A stretch of 64,000 bases of DNA, taken from assembly GCF_037042905.1 (NCBI RefSeq), contig NC_087250.1, positions 7,566,001 through 7,630,000 of the forward strand, read 5' to 3'. Each line of letters begins with the position of its first letter. Position 1 is the first letter of the stretch. This stretch comes from Lytechinus pictus (taxonomy: Eukaryota). Below are positions 4,661-51,000 of the stretch, in pieces. Below the pieces are notes generated by a model, which did not search any database, was not told where the DNA came from, and saw only the letters and a list, made by a program, of their open reading frames with translations. Position numbers and translations under genes: made by a program.

Positions 4661-7600
4661 TAGTTATTGGTGACCTTTCGAGGGTCTTTGCACTTTGAGG
4701 GGTCAACAGTACTATCATCTGATCCTCCATTCAGCCCTCCTCCACCCGGTCCTCTGTTCCTTTGCTGGCGCTGGACGCGACTTGAACTGGACTCTCCGCT
4801 CCGGGGCGTCTCCGTCAGCTGAGATCAAGAAAATAGGGTCGGGAGGTCAGAGTTCAAAATATAAAACTTCTTGTAAAAGATGCCAAAAATCTCCCTATTT
4901 ACAGACCTTTCTTACGAAAAAGAAAACTTGTATTTCTCTCACCTTGAAACATTCAACTGTCGTCTGTCTCATGTACTCATGCGTTCTTTTCCGGCTCTCT
5001 GATGAGGATGAACTTTGACCTTTGCCCTCTGACTTGGTATGAGGTCGAAGGTCAATCTCTACTTTGAGGAAGCAGTCCCGAAACCGTAGAAGATGACTGC
5101 GGAAACATTAAGAATAATTCACACCCTTTAAAATTATGACAACTATATGAGACCTCCCAGCTGAAAACCAAAAATGAATCAGCTAAAAATCAAATTAGAG
5201 TAGATTTTAAGCTTTAAGATGCTATAAAACTTGCAAAAATTCATCTACTATTCTTGTATCACGATTCAGTAGATGATTAAGAGTAGAATTAATAACGAGA
5301 GGATATTTGCTGCTGAAGAATGAGATGTGTGCAACATTTACTCTTTTCTACGTCATCAATTATTTTCATCAAGAAATTGCTTTTTCCCCATTTCTGGCTG
5401 AAATTTCAGGACTTCATTTTCTAACAGAAGCAGAGCTGCCAACAAGAACAAGATTATTTCAATACTTTCAAAGCTGAAAATAAGTATTTTTGTGAGAAAA
5501 TCAGTATTTTCGAAGTAATGCAATAGGACAACACATAAAACTGAAACTCTAGAAATCAGTATTTGGCATGAAACTATCAGTATTCTTCTCAAATTTCAGT
5601 TCTTTTTTACTGAAAATCAGTACTACTTGGCAACTCTGCAGAAGGTTGAGGGGTTACACTTTCAGGTATTCTTGTCATGCAGTTTATAGTAGGCTTTATT
5701 AAAACCATCTTATAAACTGCGCGGCAAGCCTTGGCAGCTTTGCTGAAGGTTGAGTTGTTACACTTTCAGATATTCTTGTCATGCAGTTTATAGTGGGCTT
5801 CATTAAAACCCTTTATAAACTGCATAGCAAGATTCTCTGTAAACAGCTTATTGATAATTCTGAAGTTTATGAAAAAAAAATTATAAATAAAAATTATCTT
5901 ACAGATAGAAGGAACAGGACAGGAATTTATTTTTCATTGAGAAGGTAATTATGACAAAATATGCCAGAATTCAAGTGATATAAAACTTTTTCTTTCTGCG
6001 TGTAAGATTTGCTGGCAGCATAACCTTCATGTAATCTTTTGCTTGTCAGATTTTTGGCCAAGAATATGCTGACCCACTAATTCATCAACCCATTCATTTA
6101 GTGTTTTCATTGACACTTGTTAAGGTTCCTAATTCAACACTTTAACACTCAAGTTCATGTAACACAAGATAACATTCTTACCTTAATACTCGAACACCAA
6201 AATACATATAACACTTATCAAGGTTCTTACCTTATAAACACTCAAACACTACAATTCATGTACCAGGAGTTAAGTTACTTAACACTCTGAACACTACAAC
6301 TCATGTAACAGGTGTCAAGGATCTTCACTCGAACACTGAAATGTACATAACACATGTTAAGGTTATTACCTCAACACTTGAAGAATAGAGTTCATGTAAC
6401 ACGTGTTACCCAGATTCCTCAGTCCAGTAACACCCGGCGTTAACACCGTCCACTTCCTCTTAATCGGTGTTACAACCTTCTGTACCCGCTTCGCCACCTT
6501 CGGATGCGAGCTACCACTGGCATTAGTCTTTGTTTCAATTCTACTAGGGTCTTTGAATGATATCTCATTATCCCCTGAGTTCTCTTGACGTTTTGGCGCG
6601 GGGGCGCTCTTGGCCGGCGTCTTGTGCCCCGTGACTTTGTCGCCGTGGACGAGGCGTTTCCAGGCGAGGAATGTTGTCGAAAGCAGCATGAATCGTCGGT
6701 GTATGAGGGCGGTATGACCCTTGTCTCGCATAACAAAGTTGTCATCTCGCCTGTAAAAAAGAAGAAAGAATTTCAGCTATAAGGTTATGTTCAGTCTTGG
6801 GGATTGATGCAGTTTTCTGCCAAGATCGACCCCTCTAACACAAACTTGGCAATTAATCTTAGGGCTGATATCTATGCCTGATTACATTTATCATCTGCAA
6901 TCAAATCACTTTACAATCAATCACTAAATTTTGTGTCGAGAGCCCCTGGCAAGATATAATATCCCTTAATTTGAAAGCAATAAAGACACTTCACTTTTAA
7001 TAAAATCTTAATGCTATCCAGTTGTATTTCTTTTGTACATGTTGATTATCTCTCCCAGATATCTCTATCTCCATCACCGCTGCCCAAGGTCCCCCCCCTA
7101 TCTCTTTCTCTCTCTGTCTTTTTTCATTTCTCTGTTCCTCTCTCACCCTTCTCTCTCTCTCTCTCTTGTTATCTCTCTTCTTACTGAAAACTAAGTGGAC
7201 TTGACTCCATAGATAGAAATCCTAAAACCTCTCTATATTCCTCCCTCTTTCTACATGTACTTTTTTAATACTGAAAAATATGTTTTAGCCGACCCCATGC
7301 CATAGACAGAACCATTTACATTTTCTCTCTCTTCCCATCTCTTCTTTCTTTCTTACTCTCCCTCTCTCCCTCCACTTACCCATGACTATGTTTAAGTTGA
7401 CTGGAATCCACCGATAAGGCTCTTAAAAACCTTCTCCTTCCACCTCTCGATGCGTTTTCTTCAAACGTCTGTTTCGTGATTACGTCAAGCGTGTCACGCA
7501 AGAACTTCAGATCTCCTGTCACGTTGTCATTCAGGATGTAGTCATCGCACTCATAACTATAAGAAAAATTTACAGATACATCGTTATTGCTCATAAATGG

Positions 7601-21539: not shown

Positions 21540-22100
21540 GTGCATCTCCAATGGCATAATCATTATCAAGTACCTGTCAATGCTTTGCTAAAGGGTTTGG
21601 GAACCATTCTATTCCTGTCTAAACAGAGAGTGGTAACCCATCTCACTTTTTAAAGATCTGCATCTCCCATGTTTTATGCACTAACAAGTGTCCTTCACCA
21701 TCTTGTGCAAGGGTTTGGTTACCATTCACAAGCTGACATATAATCAAAGACTGGTAACCCATTTCATTTCTCAGAGAGAAAGTACATCTCCATTGGTTTA
21801 TGCACAAACAAGTGTCCATCACCATCTTGTTCCAAGGTTTGGTCACCATTCAATAGCTGTCATATACACAAAGACTGGTATCCCATCTCACTTCATAGTG
21901 AGGAAGTACATCTCCAATGGCCTGTTAACTTTCCAGTGTCTCTCATTATCAAGGGTTTGGTTACCATTAAATTGCTGTCATATAAACAAAGACTGGTATC
22001 CCATCTCATTTCTTACCGAGAAAGTACATCTCCAATGGCCGATTCACTTTCCAGTGTCTCTCGTTGACTTGTTCGAGGGTAAGGTTACCATTCAATGGCT
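21540..22100 (-). repeat. Tandem array (5 units of about 120 bp) of the RING1 last exon with its acceptor
   Basis: Units align to the exon [26 protein letters not shown] and its flanks. Confidence 0.9.
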
Positions 22101-25100
22101 GTCAAGAAATAAAAGGGGATACAATCATGCATTGTTAACTTGTTGATATTTCTTGACTTTCTGTTTATTTGTTTGCTTTTATTTCTGCGTTCAAAATGAT
22201 ACACAAACCAAATGAAGACTTTGCGAAGATTTTGTGAACATCACTCATTTTGGTAAGTTCCTGCACACATCGTCAGCATAAACATAATTTTTCTTCAAAT
22301 TTTTGAAATTTAGTAATTTGCATATTCTGAAAGCCTATCATTAACTTTATAGAAGTAGCAAAGTTCACATCAAAATCCTATTATTCAAAGAATAAGAGCA
22401 TATTTATATTTCACACGACTGGTGAATCCCTTGCTTTGATTTTACGAAGCGGCATAAACCATCCTTTCTGTACTAAAGCAGTCTCCTGAATGGCGTGCAG
22501 AGGTAAAAATTCCTGACCTAGAAGTTGCGCGTATCCAGTCCGTATGCATTGACAGAATTTAAAACTTGGCAATAAAAACCATGCGCATTGTACGCATGAT
22601 TTTCTGAAGTGACATATAAAACTCTCAATATTGGAAATGAAGCACAAAAATTCAGACTGCGAACAAAATTTTGCATATATAATAAAAGGATAGAAAGTTT
22701 GCTTTAAATTGGTATAAATAATTGCTCTGGTTGCTTTCAAAGTGCGGAATTATGAGCGTATAAAAAACATTCAAACTTTGAACAAGATTATCTTGAAATC
22801 GTGTTTTGGAGACCAGCCGAGGTTTATGCCGGTTCGTAAAATCACTGAAGATATGACAAGCTTTTGAACAATGCTTGAGAAAGGGCTTTAAGGAAAGTCC
22901 TGCTTCCTGTCACACAAAGGTTAGCAATTAATCGTATGCTCGATTTTTTAGGATTGATTGTATGATGGGAGGGGGGACCTAAAGCTACACACTTTGTTTT
23001 CAAACGATAAAAACTATGCCAATTTTAATATTTGAACAAATTATCTTTCACTAATTTGTAATAAATATCCTTAACCAAGAAGAAAATGTATCACAAAACT
23101 CACTAATAATACGAAAATCCCGCCGTGCTTTCCGAACACCTCTTGATTTCGCCGCCCAATGTAGAAGGGGTCCTAAAGCTACGCACTCGATTTATCATGC
23201 AAAGAAATAGTATTTCCTGCACCTCAATTTATAAAATATGTCCGTATTATTACAGTGAAATGTGAAATTAAAGTGAATACAACTCCAAAACATTTGCTGG
23301 TTTTCTCTGCATTCAAGAATTTATTGCAGCCTCTGTAGCAAAAATGAATAGGGATCGTTCGTCACTCGGCAGTCACAGCTTCACACACAGAGCTTGAGTG
23401 CGCATTTATTTTGCCATTGAAATTGTATGCGCAATGGAGTGGTGCATAGCTTGAGGACCCCCTACCATATATTGTAGTCAATGCAATCAATCGTAACAGT
23501 ATTCTTCTAGGATGATTACTAATCTTTGTGTTACGGGGACCCTGAACTGACCTGGAATTGACATGGTGATGGACTGATGAAGATCGTGAACTCTCCGCAG
23601 TTTCCTTCGTTCTGATTGGACGAACTCTGACTATCCATTGAACCGGCATCTACGGTAGAACGCAAGAACAAACAACAAATTAATTCATGATACCTTGATA
23701 GAGGGGACAATACAGTCGTTTTCTCGTGTGTTCCCTAGATAGGAAAAATAATATAAGATTTATATAGCGCACGTATCCACCTTGTTAGGTGCTCAAGGCG
23801 CTCCTATACTACCACGGCTTTGCTAGTTGGGACCTTATGGTCAGAGCAATATTTCCCCGGCTTTTCGCAGGGACCCCGACCCCCCGCTTTTGCAGGGTAC
23901 TTTCCTTTACCAGAAGGGTGTTTCAGGGCTTACTGACTCTTTATAAGACACAAAAATACAGACTATTTGAAATTTTAGCAAATCCGTCCGTATCAGTGTA
24001 TGTCACTGATACAAATATTACTAGATCATGTGAATGGGTATGCTCCAGGCAACAAACAATTTTGTTTATCTTCGGGGGCTATTCTTCACAGCTTACTGTC
24101 TAAATCTGCTACATTGGATAAGCTTTAATGACATTGCAATGAATGGGGGTTTTCAGGGCTCCTTTTTATCAGTTTCCAGGGATCTTTTGAGGATTTCAAG
24201 GGGCAAATCCGTGTATTTTTTCCCTGAACAGTCATTATATTGACAGATGTGAATAAAAATATTTAAGCAATTTTATACGAAAATAGATTGGCTTCCTGAT
24301 CGAAATGAAATATGTGGAATAGGCTGAAAATTTGAAGATTAATTCTTTGTACACGGCTTCCTGATATCCACATGCTAAATTTTTAAGACATGTATTCAAA
24401 TTTCATTTCTTAAAGGAAAAAAAAGGAACAATGTCAAGAATTATTTGGCAAGGTGATCGAGGAAAGCAATATGTATTGCAAATTTAATGATCGTAATAAC
24501 CTCTTAGTTTGAGAGTGATCCTTACAAATTAAAAACAGGCTAGATTTTTCTTTTCCGGTAGGGCTACTGGAAACAATTAAAAACTAATAAAGGCATTTTG
24601 TATTGCCAATTTACTGATCACACTCAATAATTAGATTGAAAGCAAATTACACATTACAGAATTTTAGCTTGAGTTTGCATGTTTGTGTTATTACAAAAGG
24701 TTATGAATATTTACATCTGGGACCAATTGGACCAAGACTATAATCACAAGAAAATAGAAGTATTATGTATTGCCAATTTACTGATTGTACTACCCTCTTA
24801 GTTCGAGAGCAAACTTTATAGATAAATATTTGGCTAGGTGGAAAATAAAGCATCATGTATTGCCAATTTAGTAATCATACTAACCTTTTAGTTCAAGAGC
24901 AATCCTCATGGACAGATACTTGGCTAGGGGGTCAATAAACGCATTGTGTTGCCAATTTACAGATGACATGAATCTAATGGATGTGTTTGGCTAAATATTT
25001 GGCCTGAATGTTTATGGAATTCATATGCATTGCCAATTTAGTAATCATACTAACCTCTTAGTTCGAGAGCGATCCTCATGGATAGGTACTTGGCTAGGTG

Positions 25101-31800: not shown

Positions 31801-34800
31801 TTGGACCTTGAGCCCTTCTTCGATGCTAGAGCTCAGAGCAGTAGCATTATGTCTCTTATTCAGCTTGGCCAAAACCCTCTCCTAGAATAGGTAATACAAA
31901 CAAAGCAATGAAAGGACCACTTTAATTTAATTTAAAATCAAAATCATTATGACATTAATAATATGGTAAATTTTGAGAATACTAGAGCTCAGTGCAGTAG
32001 CATTATGTCTCTTGTTGAGCTTGGCCAAAACCCTCTCCTATAATAGATAATACAAACAAAGCGATGAAAGGACCACTTTAATTCAATTTAAAATAAAAAT
32101 CATTATGACATTAATAATATGGTAAATTTTGAGAATACTAGAGCTCAGTGCAGTAGCATTATGTCTCTTGTTGAGTTTGGCCAAAACCCTCTCCTATAAT
32201 AGATAATACATACAAAGCGATGAAAGGACCACTTTAATTTAATTTAAAATCAAAATCATTATGACATTAATAATATGGTAAATTTTGAGAATACTAGAGC
32301 TCAGAGCAGTAGCATTATGTCTCTTGTTGTACTTGGCCAAATTAAAACCCTCTGCTAAAATATATTATACAAACAAAGCAATGAAAAAACACTTTAATTT
32401 AATTTAAAATCAAAATCATTACAACACTAACAATATGGTAAATTTTGAGAATACTAGAGCTCAGTGCAGTAGCATTGTCTCGTGTTGAGCTTGGCCAAAT
32501 CCCTCTCCTATAACAGATAATGCAAACACAGCAATAATGTAAATGAATGAACCATTTCAATTCATGTAGAATTAACAACATACTGAAATAAAAGACGCTT
32601 CATATAAAAATAATAATATCCAAGTCCCTTTGGAAGCGCATAGAAACATTAAATGGTACATGAATGGAATGTAATCATTACCCAGAGTAGCCACTTAAAT
32701 TATATGACATAAGGATGACATAAGGGGCCCGTCTTACAAAGACTTGCGATAGATCCGATTAATCACAACTATGGAAAGCCAGCAAAGTCAACATATAAAA
32801 TGCATGTTCGCTCAAAAAAATTTCTAGATATGAATGTATATTCATTTAAATTCATTGATTTCTTGACAGTTCGGTGTGTACTCCTTTGCTTACAAAGGAC
32901 ATTTTGCACATTTCCTGTAGAAAAAATAATATCACTGATATATTCCAAAGAGTTACGATTGATTGGATCAATCGCAACTCTTTGTAAGACGGGGCCCAGT
33001 TGTCATGGTGTCATGGCGGCCTGGTTCTAAACAAATGAATCCACCAGATGAAAGCATGTGTTTCTCATAGGAGAAAATGACTGCTATTGGAATTTGATCA
33101 CTTGCAACCTACTTTTCAGACGAGCCAAAATCATTTGCATATTCAAATGTGCACAGACGATCGTCAGCTGCGACTCTGTTTGGAACCAGCTCGCCATGAC
33201 ACCATGGCAACTGACGTCACACGTCGGTGCTCTATTGAAACTGCTCTATCAATGTAGTAGTAACCCAGGCTTTTATATCAAGATTAGTTTCGGATTTGAA
33301 CCCCAAACCTTGCAATTCAAAGACCGGAGGCTTATCAACTCAGCCATCAGGTGAACGTCAGGCTCATACAATGAAAGCACCTATTGTTTGGCAGACAAAA
33401 GGTGCCCCTCCACTTTCTTTGTCCGAGCTTGATGTTCCGCCGCCTCTGATGAAGTTACTACTACAGTAACTTTGCCATCCAAATGGTAACTACCATGGTA
33501 ACGATGCTAATCAGCCAATCAGAATCAAGGATTTCAGAGAAGTTACCATTGGATGCCAAAGTTACCATGAAACAGATACACCTTCCCTGCCTTCTACATT
33601 CTCTATGATGTAACAATTGAAATGATCAAAATCATCCTGTTGCCATGGTTACCTGATGAGCTTCGTATTCATCTCTGCTGGGATAGATCTTTGAGATGAG
33701 GGCGTCGAAATTTGGGTCTGGCCGCAGAGATCTCTTGGAGACAAGTTTCTTACGACACGTCGGGCACTCCTTGTTCCTATTTGGAAACAAGCAATGAAAA
33801 TAATCCTCAAATTGTCATCGCAATCAATTTGGTAACAATGATGTCATCTTATAAACAGCACCATATTATCATAAGACTGTTCAAATTAAAACATAGACTA
33901 CAGGACTTCTGGAAACTTAAAAATAATCATCTTTAATCCTCAAATTGGCATTATTTATTAGTTCTTTTCACATTCTTACATATTAAAAAAAAAACTACAG
34001 ATACAACATGAACTAAAATGTATTATGAGAGCAAATTATAAGTGAAAACTGCAGGCATTTTATTTTTTATTATTTAAAAAAATATTTTTTGGAGGGGGGG
34101 AGGGGAATTTTCACAAATTACTGCCAAGATCTGCATACCGGTATATATGCTATAATATTGTGGGGAATAGGGATTTTCCAGGGCTCTTTTGAGGATTGCA
34201 GGGGTGAAATAACTGAGAGCCCCTTTTCCCTGAGGAAAACTGCCAAAATTAATATCAAAATAGCAATTTAACTTTCATCGCTTGATAATGTGAATTAAAT
34301 TGAACTACACTTACCCACTCCTTAGGGCTGTAATAATACAATCCTGGCAGAATCGATGTAAACATTCCTTGGTGGTATATGTATTCTTCAGCATGTCAAG
34401 ACATATGGGGCACATCAGCTCACTGTGCAGACTCCGGGGGGACACTGCAATCTCAGTGTCATCGGTGATCGCTTCTTGCGGGGAGCGGTGAAGCTCGTAA
34501 AGACTCAATTCTAGGGGGTGTAGAATAGAGAGATGCACTCATGTTTAATTCTAATATTCACAATGGAGTGAAATTTTTATTGCATGGTTTACCAAAGACT
34601 ACCATGACTATGATACAGGGCACGTGTCCTTACGAAACACAAACACAAAGGCCCGAATTCACAAAGGTTGTTTTGAAAACCCACGGTTGAGTCCATGGTT
34701 TATGCAGATTTCCTGTATAAATTACGCTTAATTTAGCGTGTATCAGGCGCTTGTATAAAAAATGTCCAATGCTGATCCACGATTTTGTCACAGTGCGCCA

Positions 34801-37800
34801 AATTGACGCCTATTGCTGTGGTTATCCACGCTATTTTATTCATGAGTCCACTGTTTGAAGAGTGGACTCATTAATTCAAAACAGTGGACTCATGAATAAA
34901 ATAGCGTACCATGGCAACAGGTGTCAATTTGGCGCACTGTGACCAAAGCGCGGATCAGCATTGGACACTTTTCAGTACACATGGCCAAATAACCATAATT
35001 TATACAGAAAATCTGCATATGATAAACCATGGACTCAACCGTGGGTTTTCAAAATCACCTAAAATTTGGGCCTAACAGTCTCATTAACCGGTGGAAGCCT
35101 ATGGCCCCATATATGTGGGCTGGAGTCTGTAGAAAACATGTGTTATAGTGGAACCATCCAGTCTCCAACGGGTTAATTATTCTCTTTTAACTTGTAGTTC
35201 TTTCCCCTGAAGTCCTCAACCAGGAAGGGTTAATTAAGGCTGAATTCTTTATTTTTAGTTGCTTTGCTTCAATATACGGCTGGTACCAAGCCTAACTTGT
35301 TTACTTGACAGCCAATCACAGCTCGCCATTTAGCATCCATTGTCTATTTAATTTGTTTACAAATTTTTGGCATTACTCCTATTTGTTTAAGATCGGTATG
35401 CTCGATCCCCATTACAGATCGAGCATACTGATCTTAAACAAATAGGAGTAATGCCGAAAATTTTTAAACAATTATAATTTCCTCCTATTAAAGCCTCTTC
35501 ATTTACTATTGTCTATTTAGGTTCTATCATATATTGTTTTGCTCTAGCGTTTTAGTCATTCATGCGATTTTACTCCAATGAGTGCATGTAGAAAAGCTTC
35601 AGTATGTCCTTTTTAAGGCTATTTTACGATTTTGCAGTACCACACACTTTTTTATGAATTCTTTATGAAATATACATGTACAATAATAATTTAAGAGGCC
35701 CATATTTTGAAATCAAGTTTAATGCACACTCTGGTCTTAAGTTGTGGTTTAACTATGGAATGCCAATTGTGACACTGATCTCTAACAGCACAGGATCAAA
35801 TTTACCAACTCATTTCTCACTTCAATAATTCATGATTGAGTTAGAATGTTAACTACTAAAGCTTTAGTCAACATTAAAGTATGGAAAAGGAGTACAGAAA
35901 ACACAAGAAATATAGGATATAAACACAATGGCCCGTATTCTGAAGTCAGGTTTAACTTAGACCATGGTCTAACTCTGTGCTAAAATTATGGGAAGCCAAA
36001 AGTGTCAACATTTTTATTAAGTTGTATGTTTCTTATGTTTACTGTGCTCTTTCCTCATTCATCCATGGTGAAGACAATAATCTTTTTATACTTCCTAGGC
36101 AGTTAATAATGTTTCGGGAGTCAAATGAGCTAATACATTGAACCTCTACTGTTAGAGATTTATGTAATAATTGGCTATCCATAGTTAAACCACAACTTAA
36201 AACCAGAGTTTAAATTAAACCCGACTTCAGAATACGGGCCAATGGGTGCTATTATCATAGCCATGGTTTAGTTAAACCTGGGTTAACTTAATCACACTTT
36301 TATAGAGCACTAGCTTTCAATTTATTCACCAACTGAAAATCATTTGTAGGCTGCAGCAAAACTTTGTCAAAGAATTAAGTGAAATGAGAAAAATTGTAAA
36401 ATACAAAATCATAATGAATTTCAATGAATTAATTCATACATTTTTGCCACAAATATGGAGGAAGTACTGTATCATGAAGCCTATCATTCCATAGAACTGT
36501 GGTTTATATCTGTTGACATTTTTGGCTTCCCATAATTTTAGCACATAGTTAGACCATAGAGAAAGTTAACATGGACTTCAGAATATGGGCCAGAGGATCT
36601 CTTTCGCTGGTTCCATGACATTTGCTCCTGCGACAATTGCTCGGCTGTAAATTCCACACACCGATGGAACGACCAACTTCAACCCTGGATTTAACATCAT
36701 ACCCTATCCTAAACCAAACCTTAAACCTAACACAAAACTCTATTGCAACCCTAACCTTAAAACTATATCTTAGACGAAATAGAGCCAGGAGCAACTGTCG
36801 CGAGAGCAATTGTCGCCTGAGCAATTGTCAAGTTATCACGACTTTGCTTACCCCATGATTTGCTGGGTTGGGAATTTCCACTTGCCTGTCATGAAAGAGA
36901 GAGAGAAAAAAAAGAGTGTTAACAGGGTTGTGAACTTGCAAAATATAGAACATTTTTATTGAACATGAAAATAAAGAGATGAAAAAGAGTGAGAAGTTTG
37001 GCAAAATCATAGTTAATGTTAATTGTCAGGGAAAGTTTTTTTTTTAAACCACCCGAAATGAATTATAGGGTTATAGGAACTGATAAATATGTTTTCATTA
37101 TTTTAAAATATTGCTTTCTTCCTTATTTCTTTACTTACTTGTTCTTCAATATGCTCTGTCCTTTTCCCTTTTTTCTATTTTTTTTTTTCATTTTAAGTAA
37201 CATACATAGCCCATACATGGCACACAATCTATAACATGATTAAAGGAATACTTACATCCCCCAACCATACACAAAATACACAGCTTTTGGTCAGGATACC
37301 TCCCCCCCTCCCCCAGCACAGCACTGCCACTTTAATAAAGATGTACATTCACAGCACCCCGATGTATTTCATGCAAACAATACTCTACATGTTAGAACCG
37401 GGCCTATCGTACTTTAATAATCATTCTTTTTCTTAAATCTAAATTTGAATTTTGCATTCCATCCATTAAAAAAGAAAGTAACGATTTAGAATCCCAACGT
37501 TAAACCAAAGTAAAAACTAAAAGTAGTTCTTAGTACATTAGACTTAACTTAGACTTTAAAAACTGAAATAAAAAGTCAGGAGAATTTTTTTTCTTTCTAA
37601 TTATTTTTGTCTTGAAACTTTGACGCGTACAACTTTGGCTTTGAGTTTTTAACATGTTTAAGACTTATTATCTTGCTGCCGTACCAGTTTTAGAATATCA
37701 ATCATGGTCACTTCCTCATCCCCCCCCAAATGCCATGGACAACCCCCCCCCCCCCCCCCCCCTGGACATGTCCTGCACAGCAGCTGCGTAACAGGGGTCG

Positions 37801-40800
37801 GTGCCAGGGAGGCAAGAGCCAAAAATTTCCCAGTCATATCATGGTATGAACAGGCGTAATGGTGTAATGAGGCGACTACCAGTATTTTAAGAAGGCCAGA
37901 TATTGTGTATTGGGGAGAATTTATCTTTTTTTAAAAGTTGCAAGCGAGCGAAGAGAGCAAGCAAAAATTTTACCTTTTTAATGCAAAAATCAAATTTTGT
38001 GATAAATTTTGACTTGATATCCAGAGAATAATATACACTACTCAAAAAAAGTTAAGGACCACTTTTTAAAACGTACATAAAGATTTTATACAAGGTGTTT
38101 TATTTCTGGAAATACCTCAGTACAACTGTCCTAAATGTCCTTAAACACGCTGTAATCAATTTCACGCATGGGTGGTTTCAGTTGTTGCACAATGTCTCTC
38201 GCATCACTGCACATCCTGAAAAGTGGGCCCCGAGGGGTATCAGCTACCGACATGAAGTGGTAAAAACGAATGTCTGAGTGTCTTTCAGGCAGTTCAGTAA
38301 CGAGTGTGACCACCTCCTGCAGCAATAACGGCTTCACAGCGCTGTCTCATGGAGCTGATGAGGCGATTGATGTCTCTGACGTCCAGTGCATCCCATGCAG
38401 CCTCCAGAGCCACACCCAGCTGCTGCAGTCCAAGTGGATGGGCTTCGAGCTGGTCGAGACTCCTCCCCATCATGTCCCAGACGTGCTCTATCGGGTTTAA
38501 GTCCGGGGACCTCGCTGGCCACTCCATACGCTCAATCCCCTGGCCCTCAAGGAACTCGGTCACCACCCTAGCTCGGTGGGCACGGGCATTGTCATCCATG
38601 AAAATGATGTTTTGTCCCACATTTTCTGCAAATGGCACCACTATAGGTTCAAGGACCTCATCCCTGTACCTCACTCCTGTCATTGCTCCCCCTGGGACCA
38701 CGTAGAGACGAGTACGGTTGGCGTAGGTGATGCCTCCCCACACCATGACGCTGCCTCCCCCATAACGGTCATGTTCTGCAATACAGGGGTCTGCAAATCT
38801 CTCTCCTGGTCGCCTCCAGACTCTCGAACGTCCATCATTGTGGTCAAGGGAAAATCTGCTCTCATCTGTGAACAGAACTCTACGCCATTGCTGTCTGGTC
38901 CATCTGACATGCTCCCGGGCCCAGTTGAGACGAATTCTTCTGTGAGCAGGGGTGAGTGGGACACACTGAGCTGATGGGCGTGTCACACAGTGTCATTAGC
39001 AGAGCAAATCAAAGACACCGAGAGACAGGGCTATACTCCGAGAGACCCCGCAGTGGCCGACCAGTTTCGACAACCCCTAGAGATGATCGCTACTTGACGA
39101 ATCTCAGCCTCCGCAACCGCTTTCACAGTGCACGCCGCCTCAACAATGACTTCGCTGCAGCAACTGGAGTGATTGTTTCCACTCAAACAATCCGTAACCG
39201 ACTTCACAGAGCCAATATGCATGCCAGACGGCCAGCTCAGTGTGTCCCACTCACCCCTGCTCACAGAAGAATTCGTCTCAACTGGGCCCGGGAGCATGTC
39301 AGATGGACCAGACAGCAATGGCGTAGAGTTCTGTTCACAGATGAGAGCAGATTTTCCCTTGACCACAATGATGGACGTTCGAGAGTCTGGAGGCGACCAG
39401 GAGAGAGATTTGCAGACCCCTGTATTGCAGAACATGACCGTTATGGGGGAGGCAGCGTCATGGTGTGGGGAGGCATCACCTACGCCAACCGTACTCGTCT
39501 CTACGTGGTCCCAGGGGGAGCAATGACAGGAGTGAGGTACAGGGATGAGGTCCTTGAACCTATAGTGGTGCCATTTGCAGAAAATGTGGGACAAAACATC
39601 ATTTTCATGGATGACAATGCCCGTGCCCACCGAGCTAGGGTGGTGACCGAGTTCCTTGAGGGCCAGGGGATTGAGCGTATGGAGTGGCCAGCGAGGTCCC
39701 CGGACTTAAACCCGATAGAGCACGTCTGGGACATGATGGGGAGGAGTCTCGACCAGCTCGAAGCCCATCCACTTGGACTGCAGCAGCTGGGTGTGGCTCT
39801 GGAGGCTGCATGGGATGCACTGGACGTCAGAGACATCAATCGCCTCATCAGCTCCATGAGACAGCGCTGTGAAGCCGTTATTGCTGCAGGAGGTGGTCAC
39901 ACTCGTTACTGAACTGCCTGAAACACACTCAGACATTCGTTTTTACCACTTCATGTCGGTAGCTGATACCCCTCGGGGCCCACTTTTCAGGATGTGCAGT
40001 GATGCGAGAGACATTGTGCAACAACTGAAACCACCCATGCGTGAAATTGATTACAGCGTGTTTAAGGAAATTTAGGACAGTTGTACTGAGGTATTTCCAG
40101 AAATAAAACACCTTGTATAAAATCTTTATGTACGTTTTAAAAAGTGGTCCTTAACTTTTTTTGAGTAGTGTATTTCACTCTTCTCTCTTTAGATTCCTTT
40201 TTTTGTGGTCTGTACGCCACTGTGAACAGGATTCTTTGTGGCAGTAGCATGAAGAGTAAAAAAAAAAAAAGAAGAGGGGTGCAGTATAGCACATGTGTTC
40301 AAAAGCTGCTTTATATAAGTCCCGAGCGAGCGAAGCGAGCGAGAAAAAAATCACTTTGAGCTATTTTTTTGACATTATATTCAGTAAATAAAATCATATC
40401 CTACACTTTTCCTTTGCTTTTCTTTCCTCCTTTTTTTGTGTTCTTGTTTGTAGAACTTTTTGGGGCCATGGCCCAACCCTCCCATACGCAGTGCTGTGCG
40501 GTTGGGGTCCGGGGCGGAGCCCCCCAAAACTTCTTGATATCAAAGCCATTTAAATCTCGCAGATTGCAGCTAATTTCATCAATTGGCGTTACTTCATATA
40601 CAGACTATAGCTTTTACACAACACATTTATTCAACCCAGTTGCGTAATGAACCAAATATTTTGCGGGCAAAACATATGTGGGAAAAATTTGTAAAAAGTC
40701 GCCAGCGTGCAAAGCGAGCTGTAAAAAAAAAATGCCTATTGAAATTGAATTCTAATTATGTGATAGATTTTTCCATTATATTCAGCAAATCACACATTTC

Positions 40801-42158
40801 ATTGTTTCCATTCATTTCATTATACGTTGTCTCCTATAATTTCTTTTTTTTCCTCTTGGGTGTGGAACAAGACCCCCCCCCACCTGTATGCCAGTGACTG
40901 AACGTGATTGAATGGGGGGAGGGGGGGCATTATAGAGCCAATTGAATTTTATAAATGAAGAGCCCCTACTGCGTGGGGTCTGGGGCAAAGCCCCGGTAGC
41001 TTATTTGCATGAAATTTAGCAAGCTTATAGCACAATGTTGTATGCAGTCCATCTTTTTTCCCGATCTTTAATTTCAATCATCTGCAGCCCGGTCATGTTA
41101 TTTTTTTTCTTGTCCCTTTTTCCAATTTAGCTTTTGATTAATTACATTCTACCCTGGGGGGGGGGGCACTCAGTATATAATGCATAGTGGGTATGTGCCG
41201 CGGAGGGGACCCCCATTTTTACACTCAAATTTCCGTTCCAAGGCATAGCATTTTTGTCTTATTGAGAAAAAGAACCAAGAAAGCCGCTCCAAAGCATAGC
41301 ATTTTCTTATCGAGAAAAAAGAAAGAAATCTGCTCCAAAGCTTCGCATATTTTCCATTACGCCGTTCCGGCCGCTACAATGAGCAGCAATTTTGGTGAAA
41401 AGCGGCCTCAGAGCACTGTCCGACCATCGCCTCTGCCCTAGCGCACCCGGCGCCGTGCCGCCGGGCTAGCTGCATGCACGTTCCATATAGATGCATACGC
41501 ACTCACACGCACAAGCGACCCGTTCCAAGGACCCCGTTTTCACAAACATTGTAGTTCCAAAGCCCGTTCCGAGGACCCTCCTTTTACAAAAAGCCCGCTC
41601 CAAGGCCCCCGTTTTTTGGCTTTGACTTTGGTCGAGTACCCCCCCCCCCCCCCTGGGCATTCTTTTCTACCTTCGTTTCCCGCTATTGTTTGCCATTTTG
41701 TCATCTTTTAATTTATTTCCCACCGTGCTATTGGCTATTGCATTACATAGTCCTATTTCGGAATGATTTGTTCTTTCTCAAAAATGTTCTTCTTGCGTAC
41801 ATTTTCCCGCTTTCCTTCCTTTTCCATTTAAATTTAATGTTTTTTCTTCGTTTTATTTCAGTTTCACTTTTCCCTTTCCTTTTCCTCCTTTCCTTTTCCC
41901 CTTTTCTTCCCCTTTCCCCTTCTTTCTCCCTCCTTCTTTTAATTTTTCTCGTCTTTTTCCAGGTGAAATCCGCCAGGCCCAGGGGGCAGCTAGCAGCTTG
42001 CCCCCCCCCCCCCCCCCCGCCGGTTGCACTGCTGCACACAGACGTCAGACACAGGTCACAGCGCACGTAGACAATGCAATCAACAACATCAAACATGCAT
42101 GCACAAAATGAATGTTAATCAATGAAAATGTCGACCGGCCTACCTGTGTAACAGCCAT
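22006..42158 (-). CDS. RNF2: E3 ubiquitin ligase RING1/RNF2 (PRC1 catalytic subunit), about 398 aa
   Basis: Exons 42158-42144, 36885-36852, 34510-34315, 33776-33653, 31881-31768, 30701-30420, 26475-26380, 25199-25055, 23649-23552, 22098-22006, all phase-consistent. [21 protein letters not shown]...[26 protein letters not shown]...CPTC (RING); [10 protein letters not shown]...IDHLAKYL and [11 protein letters not shown] (RAWUL). Confidence 0.95.
27652..29783. mobile_element. Non-autonomous TIR element with CAGGGCT termini, containing a CT-rich tract
   Basis: CATCACC|CAGGGCTCGACACTA...TAGTGTGGAGCCCTG|CATCACC; subterminal GGTCCGAC/GGGCCGGTA repeats. Confidence 0.75.
28390..29600. repeat. CT-rich low-complexity tract
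   Basis: Directly visible; source of the spurious Phe/Leu/Ser-rich ORFs. Confidence 0.9.
30090..30372 (-). mobile_element. tRNA-derived SINE
   Basis: Reverse complement shows A box TGGTCTAGTGG, B box GGTTCGAATCC and the same body as the 53688 copy. Confidence 0.85.
30705..31160. repeat. Degenerate (AATTC)n pentanucleotide satellite
   Basis: Directly visible. Confidence 0.9.
31826..32560. repeat. Tandem array (about 156-bp unit, 5 copies) containing a RING1 acceptor and exon 5' half
   Basis: CTAGAGCTCAG...GGCCAAAACCCTCTCCTA repeated. Confidence 0.9.
35930..36240. mobile_element. MITE (GGCCCGTATTCTGAAGTC termini)
   Basis: Perfect terminal inverted repeats; related copy at 62331-62635. Confidence 0.8.
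38294..38973 (-). pseudogene. Inverted copy of the Tc1 transposase catalytic domain
   Basis: Translation matches the C-terminal part of the plus-strand ORF; the DNA-binding region is absent. Confidence 0.85.
38956..39912 (+). CDS. Tc1-family DD34E transposase, N-terminally truncated
   Basis: HTH region (VSHSVISR...GRP...TIRNRL), [16 protein letters not shown] and SPDLNPIE with 34 residues between the second D and E. Confidence 0.9.
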   Translation: MGHTELMGVSHSVISRANQRHRETGLYSERPRSGRPVSTTPRDDRYLTNLSLRNRFHSARRLNNDFAAATGVIVSTQTIRNRLHRANMHARRPAQCVPLTPAHRRIRLNWAREHVRWTRQQWRRVLFTDESRFSLDHNDGRSRVWRRPGERFADPCIAEHDRYGGGSVMVWGGITYANRTRLYVVPGGAMTGVRYRDEVLEPIVVPFAENVGQNIIFMDDNARAHRARVVTEFLEGQGIERMEWPARSPDLNPIEHVWDMMGRSLDQLEAHPLGLQQLGVALEAAWDALDVRDINRLISSMRQRCEAVIAAGGGHTRY

Positions 42159-42669
42159 TTTCTCTGGTTTCGTGGAAATTTAGGAGATCTAAATGAATTC
42201 AGACAAAAGAAAATCAAACTAGATATGCACCGATCCAATCATTCATCAATCATATTTCATGCAGAAGATCAAATTCAGCTTTTCATGAGCGGAAAACTCA
42301 TCTATACCACAGGAAAATCCATCAATAACATCTCAGTCTTGACAATAATGAGTTTTGATTCGTAACTTTTTGTCGGAAAATATTAATCATGATTATGTAT
42401 TTTGGAATATAATATTTTTTACTATATAAAAGAAATAAAATTTGATAAGAAATTATCCATAATAGGTTATTAAAAAATAAAATTATCTCAGATTGAAAAA
42501 CTACTTTGTAATTTGACCTTTGACACGCCCATATAAACAATTTTTGACTGAGCCGAGTTGTCAAGCCTTTTCGCTGTTTTAATGTGAGTAGATTCGGAAG
42601 ATCTAACTAAATTTGTCCTTTCTATTACTGTCCGATTTATACAGAAATTAGTATAATCTAATACCAGGC

Positions 42670-48000: not shown

Positions 48001-51000
48001 CCGTCATCATCATCACCGCTACCACTGCCATCATCATGACCACCACCACCATCATCATAATCGCCATCATCATCATAATCACCTTCATCATCACCGTCAT
48101 CACCATCATCATCATCATCATCTTGATCACCAACACCACCTTTATCATCACCAATATCCGGAAAAGACTATTCCTTTAAAAGTCATTTTTGTCTTTTTGC
48201 CGCCCCTAACCCAGGACTACTGTGATGGTGGTAACCTAGATGAGAGGATACAGACGGCCAAGCACCGAGGAAAACCGTTTGATGAGGGACGTATCATGCA
48301 ATGGTTTATCCAACTCGTCATGGCTGTACAGTACATACACTCCAAAAAGATATTACACAGGTAAAACATAAAATCAGTAATCAGGGGGACTTAAAGGGAT
48401 GCTCTGGGCTGAGAACAATATGATTTAAACAGATAAAGAAAAATCAGACAAACAAAACACTGAAAATTTGATCAAAATCTGACTAGGAATAACAAAGTTA
48501 TGGCATTTTAAAGATTTGCATTATTCCGGTGAAACAGTTCGAGGCATGTCTTTATGAATATTCAATGAGCAACTTGATGATGTCATATCCCCACTTGTTC
48601 TTTTGTATTTTATTATATGGAATTAGGTTTATTTAAATTTTTCTTCCAAGAACTGCAAAAAATGGATTGGCAACTGATTTAGTGCATTAGATATTCATTG
48701 CTGCTACATATTTCATAATAAAGGAGACACATTATTCACACATGTATGAAAAAATGAAACAAATTATGATTTTTTTCTTGTAATAACATAAGTAAAAACG
48801 AAAGTGGGGATGTGACATCATCAGCCCACCTAATGAATATTCATGATGATGTGCATACGGCTATTTTCACAAAATATTGTTAAACTTTAAAATTCATTAA
48901 CTTCATTATTTGTTACCGATTTTGATGAAATTTTCAGCATTTTGCTCTGTGAATTTTACTCTATTTTATTTGGAAACATCAGCTCAGAAAAAGCCTGTTG
49001 ATGATAATAGTGCTCCTTGGAAAAAGATTATTTCTAGGTGAATCAGAATGGCGCTATATAAATTCTTTGTAAAGTTTTATTATTATTTTCATTATGTGTT
49101 TTGGTTGAATTAACTTAAGTTATTAATTCTCAATTCATTTTATGGGAATATTCTGTTCATTCAACACTGTATATTGTATTTGTGTCTTTCAAACTATGTT
49201 ATTTTATTCAACAGAGATCTAAAAACACAGAATGTCTTCCTCACAAAGAATGATGTCGTCAAGCTAGGTAAGTTCATCTTTCCTTTGTCCATTCATTTAT
49301 TTATTTATTTTTTTAGTATATACACTGTATATCTAATGGTTTTCTGTACAAGCTCATCAAGCTGTTGTATGACACATTATTTTTGTGAGTTGCTAAATTT
49401 ATTTCTCAATGGCATCTTGGTACACAAGAACAGACACTTCTATAGTACTTATTTGATTATTGTATGTATTCAATCATTTGTTACTTTTTAGATCTTGAGT
49501 AGAAACTCAAAGGGAGAGATATATATTTCCAACCAAACTAACTGAAAATATAACTGTGCCTGTCAATCATATGTTCAATTATCTATTATTTACTTTAGTT
49601 TATATCCTCTTGTTCTACAAGCAGTTGGCCTACTTCTCAGCAAGTCTAATTTAATTGCACATGGGCTAAAATATTTTATTTGGTCCACCAAACTGTCTTT
49701 TTGGTCTCATTGCGGTTTGTGGTCTATTCTACACTTGTTCTAGTTACCACTTTAGTCCCATTTGCATTTAGACCTGTGTTTCATCAACATTTTCATCCGA
49801 CAAGTTGTCAGATCTGACATCTTTCTCTGATGTTGATTAGCTGAGAGGTACTGTTACTATGGTAACTGTAGGATAAAATGGGACTTGTCGTATAAAACGT
49901 CCGACAAGTCCATTCATGAAACGCTCCCCTGAGGGTCTCATTTCCACTTTATCAACTACATGTACATGTAATGTATTTTTTCAAATGGACTATGTGTTGT
50001 GAGACCAAGTGAATATTAGACAAAATGGATATAGCCTAACTGAAATTAGACAAAATTATATACATGTTTGGTCTAGATAGCAGTTAGACCAAATGCTTAC
50101 TAGATGATCTGGTTGTAGATGAACTAAGATTAGACTCTGACGGATGAGACCTCACAAAAAGTAGGCAAAGCTGGTGTAGACCAAGTAGGAATTGGTTTTA
50201 GTGTATTTACTTCCTCAAATGTATTCTTACTGTCCATAAATGCATGAGATTTTCTGTGACTCAGCGTGAGATCACAGAAATTATTTATATATGGGGATAG
50301 GCTGTGATTCAGGCGTGAGAAAGAGAGTTAGATGGGATGAGCAACAGCCCTAATGCAGAAATCTCACACATGATGCATGAGACTTGGTATGTCTGACTGT
50401 CCCATATTCATACATGTATTTTTTTTATTCTGAAGGTGACTTTGGAATATCTAGAACATTAGAACACACCGTAGACAAGGCCAAGACCTGTGTTGGGACC
50501 CCATGCTACCTTAGTCCAGAACTATGCCAGGACCAACCCTATAACAACAAGTCTGATGTTTGGGTAAGTCCTAGAACAAAATTGATCAAATCCAACATTG
50601 GTTAGTGGCCTTGACTTACAATGTAAATCCCCAACTTTCTGTTCTACAAAAAGTAAAACTGGGGACCTTAAACTTGACCTATTCAGGGATGTTTCATCTT
50701 GAGTAATTGCCATGATTTTACATCAAACTGTCATCCAATAGCATTACGTCAAACCCCCATTTGGAGAAAGACCGCAGTTCAGATTGCAAACTGCGGTTCT
50801 ATACCCCATTTTGCATTTGTAAATCCCAAAATCATTTCCAAGCCCAGGGGGCCGTTTCATAAAGCTGTTTGTAAGTTAAGAGCGACTTTAAGAACGACTG
50901 GTGATCCTTTCTCGCGCGCTAAATCATCGCCAATGGTGTGTACCATTTACCGCAAGACCTGATCACCAGTTGCTCTTTATTTACGAACAGCTTTATGAAA

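Follow-up and report, generated by a model that had tools for sequence, protein, structure and literature searches.

A mirror-ended derivative of a young DD34E Tc1 transposon in the first coding intron of a sea urchin RING1/RING2 orthologue

Structure of the mirror-ended element

The 64,000-nucleotide stretch of Lytechinus pictus DNA analysed here (the window) carries at 38036-40170 a Tc1 element of 2135 bp whose two ends mirror each other. We regard it, with a probability of roughly 0.55, as a non-autonomous derivative with "two right ends" that a young DD34E Tc1 family gave rise to through gap repair on a single template copy, with a template switch and subsequent end-joining. Position-by-position pairing about the axis of the element delimited two arms of 938 bp each, 38036-38973 and 39233-40170, with exactly two mismatches (38282/39924 and 38137/40069), both of which are changes in the right arm (39924 and 40069). 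The left arm (minus strand) repeats in inverted orientation the final 938 bp of the parent transposon, comprising its 3′ end, the stop codon, codons ~117-342 and the DDE domain. The right arm (plus strand) is the native right end of the parent, with an AATAAA at 40102 and the two arm-specific changes. Between them lies an unpaired spacer of 259 bp (38974-39232, plus strand) that encodes transposase codons 31-116, the HTH region, and shows no differences from the contigs of all four public sequencing runs compared. The element is bordered by a TA duplication, the left copy at 38034-38035 and the right one at 40171-40172. An earlier note on this DNA, made from the letters alone, had described 938-bp arms with only two differences, a spacer encoding the HTH region, intact termini and the TA duplication, and all of these features were confirmed.

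Two occurrences of the 24-nt terminus were counted in the window, where 100 shuffles led one to expect none, and a blastn search of the window revealed no further copies, the element finding only itself. No Rfam family was detected at the gathering threshold in 36800-42300. The polyadenylation-type hexamer AATAAA is mirrored, being present at 40102-40107 on the plus strand and at 38099-38104 on the minus strand. The latter lies in the sense of the RING2 pre-mRNA, would be inside the predicted duplex described below, and is one of five such hexamers in the host intron.

Transposase and family assignment

The plus-strand frame 38956-39912 is open, and 38974-39912 corresponds to a 5′-truncated DD34E transposase of 312 aa, without the first 30 residues and the promoter region. 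Pfam domains DDE_3 and HTH_Tnp_Tc3_2 scored above the cut-off and HTH_32 below it; DDE_3 falls in the arm, and the two HTH domains lie mainly in the spacer. Residues D129, D220 and E255 are invariant, with 34 residues between the last two (DD34E). The best relative of solved structure was Sleeping Beauty (E 2.8e-28), and the protein search returned transposases of 342 aa with 98% identity. Residues 31-342 of the protein P0123 matched the window frame at 311 of 312 positions, the single difference being an E-to-D change that results from a substitution at 39753. The parent is a young DD34E Tc1 of the IS630-Tc1-mariner group, with a TA duplication, the DD34E motif, HTH and DDE domains, and terminal inverted repeats on the parent.

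Three other assignments of the element were discarded. It is not an autonomous Tc1 copy, residues 1-30 and ~532 bp being absent, nor a MITE, since it measures 2135 bp, exceeds its parent in length and retains 312 open codons. Foldback elements (FB or the sea-urchin TU type) have arms made of internal tandem repeats; the arms described here are transposase sequence, and the sole tandem repeat in the element is a 26-bp unit in two copies (score 38).

Protein P0121 (KAG1665120.1), labelled as Nymphon striatum, a sea spider, is 90% identical in alignment to window 38974-39912, and the runs of four organisms contain the element nearly unchanged. Horizontal transfer of the Tc1 family is a possibility; the shares of 0.33-0.40 in the runs of four organisms were not read as a sign of it. 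When JGI metagenomes were scanned with the parent protein, 14 loci of 28-44% identity were obtained; there was no close parent DNA among them, and none was a full mirror element. In a distant Tc1, L003 (39% identity), part of the transposase sequence is repeated in inverted orientation (1999-2159 vs 2759-2922) just outside the left terminal repeat. No paper on sea-urchin Tc1 elements or transposons dealing with this family was found among the matches listed, judging by title or start of the abstract.

The parent Tc1 and the part that was lost

The parent presumed in the earlier note was recovered as a ~1.73-kb layout from contigs of four public runs (4 of the 24 listed) aligned to 36000-39232. 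It is ~1731 bp long, with an ATG near 445 (1287 from ATG to end) and a transposase of 342 aa. A contig of run X10 (record 14, 1722 letters) starts at the right end, covers the spacer and bears near its other end a perfect 74-bp copy of 38157-38230 (letters 1533-1606, 0 differences), an inner inverted repeat on the plus strand of the window. The outer terminal inverted repeat, of ~34 bp (38036-38069, plus strand), matches both parent ends in runs X8 and X10 (X10 record 13); in both runs the outer match stops at 38069 and is followed by 87 unlike letters (joint 38069-38157). The ends of the parent are in two parts, an outer ~34-bp repeat and an inner 74-bp perfect inverted repeat separated by the 87 unlike letters, and an 8-nt core of the outer repeat is found again in inverted orientation where the inner repeat borders on these letters or its surroundings.

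With respect to this layout, the element retains parent positions ~533-1731 (1199 bp) and has lost ~532 bp, the front third of the parent, which include the left end, the 5′ region, the promoter region and 29 codons. The lengths add up exactly (1199 + 938 − 2 = 2135). The claim that the left end and the first codons of the transposase had been replaced by an inverted right end was correct as to the replacement but understated its extent, ~532 bp and 29 codons being gone. In the left arm, contigs of X7 and X8 differ from the element at one of 934 aligned letters (38453) and those of X10 at two, and in the right part 3 of 1199 letters differ from the parent. Such near-consensus letters indicate a recent event in a young family.

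Insertion site and authenticity of the element

The host gene, a RING1/RING2 orthologue, is encoded by the minus strand; its ATG exon occupies 42188-42144, and the exon that follows lies at 36885-36852. The RING2-like protein P0151, labelled as Lytechinus variegatus, maps in order along this strand, its first 5 residues at 42158-42144 and the next 11 at 36885-36853, with GT-AG ends between them. The element lies within the intron so defined (36886-42143, minus strand; 5258 nt), the first coding intron, and the gene is collinear across it and intact. The location in a RING1 intron given previously is therefore borne out by flanking exons that match P0151.

A mirror-ended sequence may arise as an assembly or read artefact, either as a fold-back chimera or as a misjoin of two copies, and the lack of a junction-spanning contig among those listed for the four runs would fit such an origin. 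We found no contig crossing 38972-38973 among the listed pieces of these runs (36 joints, 367 loose ends and 3069 pieces lie outside those listed); since contigs drop rare forms, its lack in four contig sets says nothing on absence. On the other hand, a contig of run X7 proceeds from the left flank up to 38035, ending in the left TA, directly into 12 letters identical to 40173-40184 (12/12), a match with a composition-based chance of 1.7e-7. This empty form shows that the left and right flanks were originally contiguous, with duplication of one TA; it could represent the other allele or a close paralogue, as it is read from one contig and part of the left flank is repetitive. The collinearity of the flanks in one gene, their union at one TA in X7, the mirror ends placed exactly at the element termini, the asymmetric 259-bp spacer and the two mismatches between arms all speak against an artefact, which we consider very unlikely. 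The mirror-ended Tc1 at this site is real, and not the fold-back chimera that the earlier note had considered.

Junction and origin of the inverted arm

The earlier note had placed the junction at GAGCTG, reading in frame as E-L, and had proposed template switching at this 6-bp microhomology in the parent. The letters GAGCTG are present at 38968-38973 and do read E-L, in a frame open across the junction, a circumstance that would favour the proposal. However, they belong to the inverted arm and not to the parent. The loose end before 38972 in X7 and X8 reads parent codons ending V-A-R-M, so that the parent has R-M at the junction and AGAATG in register with GAGCTG, with only TG in common (both of the runs listing the loose end). 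Likewise, among 17 related proteins aligned, the 16 that cover the site show R-M, R-V, Q-T or E-M, and E-L in none. The 6-bp microhomology is therefore rejected, and a single switch at GAGCTG is hardly credible as the origin of the element. At the actual junction (38972-38973, plus strand) the inverted arm and the parent sequence at position ~533 overlap by 2 nt, TG, without inserted letters. The chance of an overlap of at least 2 nt is about 16% (0.156 by formula and 0.163 in 200,000 simulated joins), whereas one of at least 6 nt would arise in 0.13% of random joins. We infer that the homology driving the inversion was the ~34-bp terminal repeat.

Both arms share a substitution, located at 38453 in the left arm and at the mirror position 39753 in the right (plus strand), by which an E of the transposase becomes D. 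The four runs all have the other letter at 38453, and at full depth. A substitution present in both arms and in none of the four runs favours the copying of both arms from one molecule over two independent insertions, although gene conversion between the arms is another possible explanation. This bears on an origin from two independent Tc1 copies inserted head to head, the middle of which was then deleted. Local hopping is common for Tc1/mariner elements, and the arms differ at two sites, as two separate copies might. Nevertheless, the same rare substitution would be needed in both copies, and the empty form shows a single TA, with host DNA neither intervening nor lost, which makes this origin quite improbable.

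The evidence is better accommodated by gap repair. According to this model, a Tc1 copy would have been excised and repair of the gap would have begun from both sides. Once the left-hand strand had been extended over the terminal repeat, it would have annealed anew to the identical repeat (~34 bp) of the right end and been extended 938 nt inward, and the right-hand strand would have copied 1199 nt. As the two new strands would be of the same sense and could not anneal, they would have been end-joined with 2 nt of overlap, as in the model proposed for the element Goblin (see below). The geometry sum, the matching outer repeats at both parent ends and the 2-nt overlap without insertion are in agreement with these steps. 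The product, having two right ends and neither promoter nor N-terminus, would move only with transposase supplied in trans.

One end product cannot reveal its pathway, since a central deletion of a larger palindrome gives the same junction. The occurrence of both arm mismatches in the right arm is a further point against the gap-repair model. The progenitor could have been a longer right-right element or an inverted dimer derived from one copy, in which an asymmetric central deletion left a plain deletion joint. The 2-nt overlap and the common substitution fit this scenario equally well, and Filee et al. propose it for the 227 rearranged copies of Rpmar17, with their variable breakpoints (PMC4678618). 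It would, however, require two events, the first of which still demands an inversion, and the substitution appears in none of the four runs, which makes it improbable that the animals concerned contain a large progenitor family with this change, with the reservation that contigs drop rare variants. We hold this deletion to be the main alternative, rather unlikely though worth keeping in view, and prefer gap repair with a template switch.

Relation to published derivatives

The element is a derivative of a published kind, the 3′-3′ form represented by Rpmar49, Rpmar17 and Goblin, to which this copy adds one more. In Rhodnius prolixus, an inverted 3′ part stands in place of the 5′ part in Rpmar49, of which there are 13 copies, and in Rpmar17, with 227 rearranged copies; many independent breakpoints are described for Rpmar17 (PMC4678618). 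As in the present element, these are Tc1/mariner sequences at TA sites with long inverted repeats that have transposase homology (PMC4678618). They are mariners, mostly below 1 kb and at the longest above 1.7 kb, with an arm of 221 bp in Rpmar49 (PMC4678618), whereas the element studied here is a DD34E Tc1 of 2135 bp, compared with ~1731 bp in its parent, with 938-bp arms over 66% of the coding region. Goblin, derived from Ozma in Aedes aegypti, also has both sides taken from the right subterminal region at unequal lengths (PMC3814204). Its proposed origin is a left-to-right terminal-repeat template switch in gap repair followed by end-joining, and its 15 copies, 213 bp in length with repeats of 54 bp, show a microhomology of 6 bp together with an insertion of 1 nt (PMC3814204); the present element is ten times longer and shows a 2-nt overlap with no insertion.

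The opposite mirror form, 5′-5′, is reported from seven Drosophila mariner sublineages (PMC4161770). The Dromar7/11/28/36 MITEs (PMC4161770) and the "2RT" copies of Galileo (PMC3573991) resemble our element in that internal sequence was recruited from one end to the other, giving long inverted repeats. The former are 5′-5′ and shorter than 1 kb (PMC4161770), and Galileo belongs to the P superfamily, its longest-repeat copies being described in that account as without transposase sequence (PMC3573991). Against this published background, the 938-bp arms and a length greater than that of the parent are distinctive.

As regards mobility, an engineered Mos1 with two right ends was transposable and 26-fold more active in vitro than the natural pair (PMC4505599). 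By analogy with that construct, an element with two like ends should be mobile in trans; the Mos1 constructs were artificial substrates with short ends, and Mboumar-9 prefers the other end (PMC4505599). Taken by itself, the locus described here is the kind of by-product that an active Tc1 family ordinarily leaves. Its value is that of a clean and very young specimen with a known parent and an unambiguous junction, in which the common substitution argues for a single template, and as such it bears on the origin of long-repeat derivatives, which has been called elusive (PMC4161770).

Predicted hairpin RNA

In the minimum free energy fold of the element in the sense of the RING2 pre-mRNA, 936 of the 938 positions of the arms are paired, as uninterrupted stretches of 101, 144 and 691 bp, and the arms include 680 of 1029 coding bases (66%). 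The ~0.9 kb of dsRNA suggested in the earlier note is thus possible in principle. The perfect duplex of 691 bp is a prediction of the sort that any such palindrome would give, and is by itself no sign of function. If read through in RING2 pre-mRNA, the hairpin would, as the default expectation, probably undergo editing and then be turned over together with the intron. Inverted repeats in introns often serve as substrates for editing, and in C. elegans they are present in ~25% of the expressed genes (PMC4282642). Two T>C letters (38113 and 38117) in one low-depth contig of run X1 were examined as candidate editing and set aside, being indistinguishable from copy variants.

A known precedent for silencing by such a structure is Mu killer of maize, likewise a partial inverted duplication of a transposase gene, with two like ends and within the transcriptional reach of a host gene (PMC3440606). 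In Mu killer it is the 5′ end that is duplicated and silencing has been demonstrated, although the read-through hairpin model is disputed (PMC3440606); in the present element the 3′ end is duplicated, the position is intronic and silencing is hypothetical. A natural animal counterpart of Mu killer, in which a RING2-driven 691-bp duplex over two thirds of the transposase gene would give rise to siRNAs and carriers would repress the active Tc1 family, seems to us an improbable though attractive extrapolation from the fold. If small RNAs from the hairpin did repress the family, the locus would offer a tractable animal case of a genome first recognising a new DNA transposon.

Just within the left arm there is a CAG (38968-38966, minus strand) in register with an open frame of 232 codons, 38294-38992, that encodes the DDE domain only. 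If the RING2 ATG exon were spliced to this CAG, the transcript could in principle yield a product consisting of the catalytic domain only; the site has a weak pyrimidine tract and lies within the stem.

Other features of the window

The earlier note had suggested that the element would show how the palindromic MITEs of the window could arise. Nineteen local inverted pairs are listed in the window, and neither blastn nor a terminus search detected any sequence common to the element and the other palindromes; the 10-nt terminus gave 5 matches with one mismatch, none of which extends (13-19 of 40 letters). With no common sequence, the element illustrates a route and is not the source of these palindromes, and the proposed link was abandoned.

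Tandem partial copies of RING2 exon ends are found at 31978-32507, 24793-24942 and 21646-21977 on the minus strand, beside three true exons, the extra copies detected by tblastn numbering four, two and three, respectively. At 6366-6776 (minus strand) there are exons that, by their motifs, we take to encode a ubiquitin-specific protease-like protein, and those at 48250-49491 (plus strand) presumably encode a NEK-type kinase-like protein, again by motifs. This kinase-like gene and RING2 are divergently oriented.
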